Origin: a virus
Lineage: Duplodnaviria; Heunggongvirae; Uroviricota; Caudoviricetes
Strand: one strand, 5' to 3'
IMG/VR virus record: IMGVR_UViG_2703718769_000007
Length of the DNA stretch: 18,749 bases
The notes under the pieces were generated by a model that was given only the letters and a program-made list of their open reading frames with translations, made no database searches and had not been told where the DNA came from. Both the position numbers and the translations under genes were made by a program. Shown in pieces: positions 15,427-15,448 of the stretch (position 1 is its first letter; every line of letters starts with the position of its first letter).

Positions 15427-15448
15427 GATAAGAATAAGTCTTATTCTA
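15427..15448 (-). promoter_or_regulatory. Palindromic operator-like site (Fur-box-like) overlapping a candidate -10, upstream of the lipoprotein gene
   Basis: AGAATAAG-t-CTTATTCT (15431-15447) is a perfect 8-bp inverted repeat around one central base. Plus strand GATAAGAATAAGTCTTATTC matches 13 of 19 positions of the Fur consensus GATAATGATAATCATTATC by hand alignment. Minus-strand TAGAAT (15448-15443) could be a -10. Confidence 0.4.

Follow-up and report, generated by a model that had tools for sequence, protein, structure and literature searches.

A palindrome on the predicted promoter of a prophage TonB-like lipoprotein gene and its resemblance to a Fur box

Whether a palindrome that lies on a promoter is the operator of a regulatory protein, or a feature of the sequence that the promoter happens to include, is the question raised by a locus in an 18,749-nucleotide stretch of viral DNA (IMG/VR record IMGVR_UViG_2703718769_000007; Caudoviricetes), which at its full length will be referred to as the window. 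The whole of the window represents the late region of a lambdoid prophage of Escherichia coli, in which all of the major genes are on the minus strand. One of these genes (15084-15410, minus strand) encodes a lipoprotein of 108 aa, with a lipobox-containing signal peptide and a TonB C-terminal (TonB_C) domain, and upstream of it lies the perfect 8-1-8 palindrome AGAATAAG-t-CTTATTCT (15431-15447, read directly). In the original prediction this palindrome was regarded as a Fur-box-like site overlapping the promoter of a moron, and iron-regulated expression of a TonB-domain protein was suggested. The interpretation that we favor, and to which a probability of about 45% may be assigned, is that the palindrome belongs to the core promoter of a moron, a prophage gene possessing its own promoter inside the late operon, and that the palindrome is allele-specific and provides little or no control by Fur.

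The arms of the palindrome occupy positions 15431-15438 (AGAATAAG) and 15440-15447 (CTTATTCT) with the central t at 15439, and the perfect dyad described in the original prediction is thus present; the interval of 15427-15448 given there is longer by GATA at one end and by A at the other. The minus (coding) strand across this region reads cattgTTAGAATAAGACTTATTCTTATCTGTGCGGGGAATGAAAATGAAAAG. As had been noted, the palindrome is upstream of the lipoprotein start, viz. 15-31 nt from the first in-frame ATG (15416) and 21-37 nt from the ATG at 15410. The latter is the likely start codon, because it is the one chosen by the Prokaryotic Genome Annotation Pipeline (PGAP) in near-identical genomes, where it gives a protein of 108 aa, and because it has the better Shine-Dalgarno spacing, with a directly read Shine-Dalgarno-like GGGGA (15417-15421, minus strand) located 6 nt ahead of it. 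At the start codon itself (15408-15416), the in-frame hexamer ATGAAA is present in one to three copies across different loci (L171, L179, L221, L194), so that Met-Lys is gained or lost at the N-terminus of the signal peptide.

A promoter scan places a predicted sigma-70 promoter at this position, with the extended -10 element TGtTAGAAT at 15443-15451 on the minus strand. The hexamer TAGAAT occupies 15448-15443, where its overlap with the palindrome had been correctly pointed out, and the preceding TG is at 15451-15450. The element thus combines TGn with a TAnnnT hexamer, and it stands at a suitable distance of 32 nt ahead of the ATG at 15410. The same scan identifies a weak -35-like hexamer, ATGACC (15465-15470, minus strand), which is separated from the -10 hexamer by a 16-nt spacer.

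The main evidence on the role of the palindrome comes from a comparison of two alleles in which this moron exists: type A, which is found in the window and contains the palindrome, and type B, the protein of which is 70% identical to that of type A. The first sight of the type B promoter was given by a scan of a genome collection with the single protein, which returned only a 418-bp contaminant-like contig and a distant TonB from the Kangiellaceae. Type B accounts for 26 of the approximately 74 copies of the gene in viral contigs and for 82 of the 119 copies in metagenome contigs, which are mostly from the human gut. The extended -10 element sits within a 16-nt block, ATTGTYAGAATAAGAC, which is the sole stretch of the proximal promoter common to both of these diverged alleles, and which is invariant in all of the type A loci collected through the protein (84/84). 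As the alleles are only about 40-50% identical around it, this block provides a clear footprint of the promoter core. The type B promoter, which reads ATATTGTCAGAATAAGAC-CCGTAGGAATAAAAATG, keeps TGTYAGAATAAGAC, comprising the extended -10 element and the first arm of the palindrome, and it is without the second arm. Most of the second arm is part of an allele-specific segment (15421-15437, minus strand), which in an alignment differs from type B by substitutions and a 13-nt indel, and where type B reads AAGACCCGT-AGGAATAAAAATG. The -35-like hexamer is polymorphic among the type A loci (ATGGCC, ATGATC, and ATGCCC are also observed) and it is unconserved in type B.

The second arm also varies within type A. 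The dyad is broken in the variants TTATTtT and gTATTCT, and in TTCTaATC it is lengthened to 10-1-10. Two of the seven distinctive positions of the second arm segregate in a set of 38 type A haplotypes; the fraction of segregating positions is 0.18 in the -35 region plus spacer, 0.25 in the remainder of the leader, and 0.12 at third codon positions, so that in these sequences we see no sign of constraint on the dyad. Its occurrence is likewise not exceptional. A custom scan for perfect palindromes (arms of 8 nt or more, spacer of 1 nt or less) counted two in the window, whereas dinucleotide-preserving shuffles give an expectation of 0.75, and 51% of these shuffles contain one or more. (A repeat search using a seed of 6 and a minimum length of 10 missed the palindrome, the arms of which are 8 nt.) When up to three mismatches are allowed, the exact 17-mer has a single occurrence in the window (0.03 expected), and no second copy at this threshold is present either in the window or in the complete genome (50 kb) of the related phage Lys8385Vzw, where two matches with four mismatches were found and roughly two are estimated to occur by chance. 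Hence, although the palindrome is real, its existence is statistically unremarkable and its position on the promoter is the notable part.

In the interpretation favored here, the constrained element would be the extended -10 sigma-70 promoter, i.e., TGTYAGAAT together with the next five bases. The first arm of the palindrome would merely be the -10 and discriminator, whereas the second arm would belong to a part of the 5' leader that is specific to the allele. Transcription by RNA polymerase would begin inside the palindrome, near 15435-15436 and about 7-8 nt beyond TAGAAT, presumably with no repressor bound there, and expression of the lipoprotein in the lysogen would be largely independent of Fur, supplemented by read-through of the late transcript. 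The dyad, being allele-specific, polymorphic, and in this view dispensable, is most likely a feature of the sequence rather than a required operator.

The resemblance to a Fur box was examined using two matrices, for which the centers of Fur sites were obtained from Chen et al. (2007; PMC2189734) and the sequences from E. coli K-12. One matrix is based upon 11 strong sites, all of which read nnTGATAATnATTATCAnn (19-bp Fur box), and the other upon 16 sites. The sites from which the 11-site matrix was built score 20.8-27.1 bits with it (17.6-25.8 bits by leave-one-out), and footprinted sites independent of it score 13.8-19.3 bits. As an internal positive control outside the 11-site matrix, the stx1 operator of Lys8385Vzw scores 20.7 and 19.5 bits, and the nohA and nohB boxes of K-12 reach 25-27 bits. 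At the palindrome the best 19-mer is GATAAGAATAAGTCTTATT (15427-15445), which is centered on 15436 and not on the palindrome center at 15439. It scores 11.4 bits with the 11-site matrix and 12.4 bits with the 16-site matrix, and the weaker registers that are displaced by +3 and +6 nt score 0.5 / 6.4 and 4.3 / ~5.3 bits, respectively, with these two matrices. The 13/19 match to the Fur consensus GATAATGATAATCATTATC that was reported in the original prediction does exist at 15427-15445, though five 19-mers in the window attain 13/19; the register of that hand alignment was 3 nt off the best one and scores 0.5-6.4 bits. Its description of the match as modest was apt.

After GATAAGAATAAGTCTTATT, the next matches in the window with the 16-site matrix are at 15057 (11.9 bits) and 15399 (10.5 bits), and all others are below 8 bits. 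The three matches all lie within the 400-bp moron locus (15057-15445), a clustering that could reflect local sequence composition. The match at 15057-15075, AGTGATAATTAATTTCTGA, is 9-27 nt past the stop codon of the TonB-like gene; it scores 11.7 / 11.9 bits with the two matrices, and its counterpart in L006, a diverged locus of type A, reaches 13.6 bits. This second Fur-like 19-mer is situated between the convergent ends of the TonB-like gene and ylcI.

A number of observations weigh against the interpretation that we favor. A perfect dyad extending over -11 to +6 has the classic geometry of an operator, and the test for polymorphism described above is of low power, as the sequences compared are related rather than independent. 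Additionally, GATAAGAATAAGTCTTATT is the best (16-site matrix) or second-best (11-site matrix) Fur match in 18.7 kb, and it falls exactly on the -10/+1 region of the only TonB-related gene. In composition-matched random sequence its score is reached with a frequency of 6e-5 per position, or in about 0.25% of 40-bp stretches, and it is reached by 3.2% of palindromes with shuffled arms. Some footprinted operators are no better: those of tonB score 7.5+7.2 and 10.1+10.1 bits and that of fur 12.0 and 11.9 bits. As genuine weak operators have such scores, a value of 11-12 bits is compatible with function.

The last of these opposing points is provided by homologues of the lipoprotein that a profile search detected on chromosomes. 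Small TonB_C lipoproteins of about 110 aa, 45-48% identical to the prophage protein, are encoded on Klebsiella and Raoultella chromosomes (L342, L344-L347, L349-L350), where they are not in a prophage and have a LacI-family regulator and a glycine-zipper lipoprotein as their neighbors. The box ATTGA(T/G)AATTATTATCAAT, which scores 23.9-26.2 bits, is found ahead of the gene in three lineages that have diverged from one another. It stands 10-13 nt from the ATG and immediately follows a TAnnnT hexamer, whereas the DNA on either side is entirely different in the three. Such retention of the box constitutes strong comparative evidence that these homologues are regulated by Fur. No comparable Fur box is present at two other chromosomal homologues (L348 and L351).

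These considerations bear mainly upon one alternative, viz. that type A carries a weak but functional Fur operator, and this is the competing explanation that survives best, even though we regard it as unlikely. According to it, Fe(II)-Fur would bind at 15427-15445 and in the neighboring weak registers at +3 and +6 nt, occluding the -10/+1 region and lowering transcription of the TonB-domain lipoprotein in iron-replete cells, as occurs at the tonB promoter of the host. Besides the rank and location of GATAAGAATAAGTCTTATT and the canonical boxes of the Klebsiella and Raoultella homologues, this explanation can draw upon the summed scores of the two registers spaced by 6 nt (15.7 and 17.7 bits), which resemble those of tonB (14.7 and 20.2 bits) and fur (17.5 and 20.0 bits), and upon the half-site AATAAGAAT, which is shared with the footprinted fecA site. 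The commonest variant of the second arm (C to T), while it breaks the palindrome, keeps 10.7 and 12.7 bits. Three positive registers that are 3 nt apart are also reminiscent of clusters described earlier, and in that work all of the tested sites of 12-26 bits were shifted with 150 nM Fur (PMC2189734).

However, in GATAAGAATAAGTCTTATT the near-invariant G4 and C16 are replaced by A and T, respectively, so that the G/C core is absent from both of its half-sites. Of the 32 half-sites on which the 16-site matrix is based, 28 have G4 or C16, and at least one of the two is retained in each of 18 genuine sites. The score is 8-14 bits below those of the boxes of the chromosomal homologues and of the stx1 box of the related phage. 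Although the 19-mer spans approximately -10 to +10 of the predicted promoter, as expected for a Fur box, it is not conserved: the corresponding sequence of type B scores -2 to -4 bits, which argues that Fur control is dispensable for the moron, and the other natural variants of type A drop to 9.1 / 10.1 or 6.1 / 8.6 bits with the two matrices. Matches of equal strength away from Fur promoters were encountered about once per 10-17 kb in pieces of K-12 and in the phage genome, one of them upstream of the analogous borD moron of the K-12 prophage DLP12, and the clustering of three matches within 15057-15445 is of a similar import. This rate is consistent with the 389 sites of >11 bits that have been reported in the K-12 genome (PMC2189734). 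Thus, while the matrix score is not below background, the range in which it falls also holds false positives.

The possibility that the type A site is a Fur box that has decayed by descent was also considered and rejected. Alignments of the type A and type B promoters with those of Klebsiella and Raoultella are insignificant (p 0.18-0.6), and homology of the sites can therefore not be claimed. The two groups of promoters share a homologous protein with lipobox and TonB_C domain and a site that follows the -10 hexamer 10-16 nt before the start codon; they differ in that the Klebsiella and Raoultella boxes score about 12 bits higher, are conserved across three lineages and have a chromosomal context. 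Where control by Fur has evidently been maintained in this family, the box is near-perfect, whereas no prophage copy has more than a 12-bit look-alike. Compared with the weak tonB and fur operators of E. coli, the candidate is similar in being an AT-rich 19-bp near-dyad over -10/+1, with its score and summed registers in their range. It differs from E. coli Fur boxes in having neither G4 nor C16, in scoring far below the typical 20-27 bits, in having its best register off the axis of the palindrome, and in its absence from the sister allele.

The site proposed to be Fur-box-like therefore scores in a range common to weak operators and false positives, and it has neither the G/C core of the half-sites nor a counterpart in the type B allele; the iron-regulated circuit built upon it has a precedent in the Klebsiella and Raoultella homologues, while a functional Fur box at this locus is only possible. 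Taken together, the results neither confirm nor refute the Fur proposal; control by Fur would be weak at most, and the palindrome does not belong among the conserved features of the gene. A more elaborate form of the proposal is that in type A lysogens the level of the lipoprotein is tuned to iron by a non-canonical Fur operator that dispenses with the G/C core, thereby linking iron status to superinfection exclusion, and that type B has dropped this control. We consider this to be doubtful.

Some observations on Fur sites elsewhere in such prophages may be recorded here. The peaks obtained for the Sakai strain by Fur chromatin immunoprecipitation with exonuclease treatment (ChIP-exo) include one at stx1 and one in prophage Sp15 that lies between Rz and the small terminase gene (PMC10164565). 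The TonB-like gene is not in Sakai prophage regions Sp8, Sp14, and Sp15, the three regions of that genome that were examined, and hence the Sakai data gave no in vivo test of the site. The Sp15 (L336) peak, P90 at ~2918933 (NC_002695.1), has no canonical Fur box within ~50 nt, and peak P91 of the same table, at stx1, is offset by ~170 nt from its box. In lambda-type prophages, a strong canonical Fur box (21-27 bits) adjoins the Nu1-type small terminase gene and the cos region, as seen at L005:2527-2545 (a type B locus), at L087:3093-3111 (DLP12 of K-12, ylcI-nohD), and at L088:1592-1610 (Qin of K-12, nohA-ynfO). These terminase-side boxes of K-12 had been predicted, and the nohA site has been gel-shifted (PMC2189734). 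The window, which has an HNH/terS packaging module, is without a terminase-side Fur box. Our literature search on nohA/ynfO in combination with Fur was swamped by unrelated results.

A further alternative is that the dyad serves as an operator for some other dimeric or oligomeric protein of host or phage that represses the type A promoter through occupation of -10/+1, of which DeoR, Fis, RcsB-type, and Lrp-type proteins were considered. This we judge to be improbable. It derives some strength from the perfect 8-1-8 dyad on the predicted promoter, and from a comparison with L006, a diverged locus of type A, in which the 33-nt block around the palindrome is kept without change while 7 of the 13 bases just upstream differ. 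For Fis, GAATAAGTCTTATTC satisfies the six key positions of the motif, but a G/C-containing center is unfavorable for this protein, and the half-sites resembling those of RcsB and Lrp are wrongly spaced. When the consensus sequences of RcsB, Lrp, ArgR, Fis, PhoP, ArcA, and P22 c2 were compared with the site, none of them seemed to fit in both half-site and spacing. The second arm, moreover, is missing in type B and polymorphic in type A, there is no second copy of the dyad in the phage, and no gene that could encode such a DNA-binding protein is linked to type A in particular; among the neighboring products, neither the DUF3950 protein nor that of a 74-aa open reading frame (ORF) has a significant match to a DNA-binding family. 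An operator set of the lambdoid CI/Cro type was also rejected: no other copy with three or fewer mismatches exists in the window or in Lys8385Vzw, which makes a multi-operator phage repressor unlikely.

A resemblance to another known operator is that to the operator of DeoR. The first 10 nt of ATTGTYAGAATAAGAC are identical to the deoP2/deoO2 region of K-12, where TGTTAGAATA forms the first 10 nt of deoO2, and they include the exact DeoR half-site TGTTAGAA; both promoters also have an extended -10 element with TAGAAT. However, in the 16-bp DeoR operator TGTTAGAA.TTCTAACA the half-sites are adjacent, and here the left half is matched at 8/8 positions while the right half, CTAACA, is absent (11/16 to O2); TTCTTA occurs only after nine extra bases, and no 16-bp palindrome results. 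This resemblance is accounted for by the strong extended -10 element that the two promoters share, rather than by a DeoR operator, and this candidate was rejected. The DeoR operators TGTTAGAATTCTAACA and TGTTAGAATACTAACA are quoted in PMC5326754 and were verified by us in the K-12 sequence. The gene for Esr055, a DeoR-dependent small RNA of O157, is at a different place in the Stx1 phage, between stx1B and z3342.

Lastly, a role at the level of RNA, in which a hairpin in the late read-through transcript affects the processing, stability, or translation of the lipoprotein mRNA, is very improbable, for although the late operon must read through on the same strand and the arms can pair as a 7-bp A-U-rich hairpin, this hairpin is weak (-2.6 to -3.7 kcal/mol) and no better than in shuffled sequences (z = +0.5 to -1.25), leaves the ribosome-binding site outside, has no match in Rfam, is absent from type B, and cannot form in a transcript from the predicted promoter, which starts inside the palindrome. 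An intrinsic terminator was rejected as well, the stem being A-T-rich (one G-C pair in eight), with no U tract or T run, and unlisted in the terminator scan.

The favored interpretation, that of a core promoter belonging to a moron, directs attention to the gene itself. The identification of its product as a lipoprotein with a TonB domain is secured by the lipobox LVMGC, by a match to Pfam PF03544 (TonB_C) at 9.3e-15, and by the alignment of residues 26-104 with the whole of the solved C-terminal domain of E. coli TonB (8rd6, 1u07, 2gsk) with E ~1e-15. PHROGs assigns the protein to phrog_1267, annotated as an "Rz-like spanin" (1.7e-42), whereas the comparisons with Pfam and PDB indicate the TonB C-terminal domain instead; the spanin label probably reflects the position of the gene beside Rz and not the fold of the protein. 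The gene in its type A form, annotated as "TonB family protein," is found in 415 of 5426 complete E. coli genomes (~8%), including many Shiga-toxin-producing strains; one strain that carries type A is O111:H- 11128, with the gene at 1747248-1747644 of NC_013364.1. The 1.2 kb surrounding the palindrome are 96.5-97.3% identical to many E. coli chromosomes and Stx1a-converting phages. Our literature searches found no published study of a prophage TonB-like lipoprotein and no transcript data for the locus.

The TonB_C lipoprotein gene is placed between Rz and the HNH and terminase genes. On its Rz side are found the endolysin gene (17668-18201, minus strand), an ANT/KilAC antirepressor-like gene (16699-17394, minus strand), Rz (16003-16569, minus strand), and, between Rz and the lipoprotein gene, the above-mentioned 74-aa ORF (15755-15979). 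On the other side, the DUF3950 YlcI/YnfO gene (14752-14952, plus strand) and the HNH endonuclease gene (14345-14710) are followed, in gene order, by the genes for the small and large terminase subunits, the head genes, and the tape measure gene. In some Stx1a phages a Rha-family regulator gene is inserted between Rz and the TonB-like gene (Lys8385Vzw, L094:47933-48484; compare window ~15600-15750), the palindrome being unchanged. Elsewhere the slot on the Rz side contains pchC (Sakai prophage Sp14) or bor (Sp8 and DLP12), and these varied contents indicate a hot spot at which morons are exchanged. Ahead of the promoter, some 140 nt that seem not to code for protein (15560-15700) are roughly 85-90% conserved between types A and B, in spite of the divergence of the proximal promoter region, and they have no Rfam match and no convincing ORF.

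Some other repeated sequences were observed in the window. Between the HNH and small terminase genes (14110-14260, minus strand), the motif AA(A/C)ATGTTTA(T/C)A..CCTG occurs three or four times, and this region includes a perfect 8-0-8 palindrome, TATAAACATGTTTATA, at 14238-14253; the repeats look like the terminase-binding (cosB-type) repeats of an HK97-type packaging module. A G+C-rich perfect inverted repeat (10-2-10), ACGGGAGGCGCACGCCTCCCGT, is present at 9809-9830, just after a 645-aa ORF (9845-11782) that is annotated as phage major capsid protein in near-identical genomes. Another perfect inverted repeat (8-2-8), TCACTGCTTCAGCAGTGA, is located at the edge of the window (18727-18744).

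In its position and organization, the TonB-like gene resembles the bor moron of lambda and borD of DLP12, with which it has in common the slot between Rz and cos in the late operon, a small lipoprotein product, and a sigma-70 promoter of its own, which here is a predicted one. It differs from them in being co-oriented with the late operon, bor having the opposite orientation, and in encoding a TonB C-terminal domain that is unrelated to Bor. Llp of phage T5 and Cor of phi80 and N15 are phage lipoproteins that block TonB-dependent receptors. Like them, although there is no sequence relationship, the protein described here is a small lipoprotein encoded by a phage, for which interference with TonB-dependent transporters of the outer membrane would be plausible. 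Soluble periplasmic fragments of the TonB C-terminus reportedly inhibit TonB-dependent transport, and by analogy the lipoprotein could act as a decoy at TonB boxes, limiting the entry of TonB-dependent phages and colicins.

The palindrome alone is of minor significance, but it draws attention to the predicted promoter of a prophage gene that is so far unstudied. The textbook Fur boxes of the Klebsiella and Raoultella homologues, the weak look-alike of type A, and the lack of any such site in type B provide a clean natural comparison, which bears both upon how regulation changes when a captured gene becomes a moron and upon the minimal strength at which a Fur site works. If the lipoprotein is indeed a decoy for TonB, the timing of its expression would decide whether a lysogen trades iron uptake for protection from phages and colicins.

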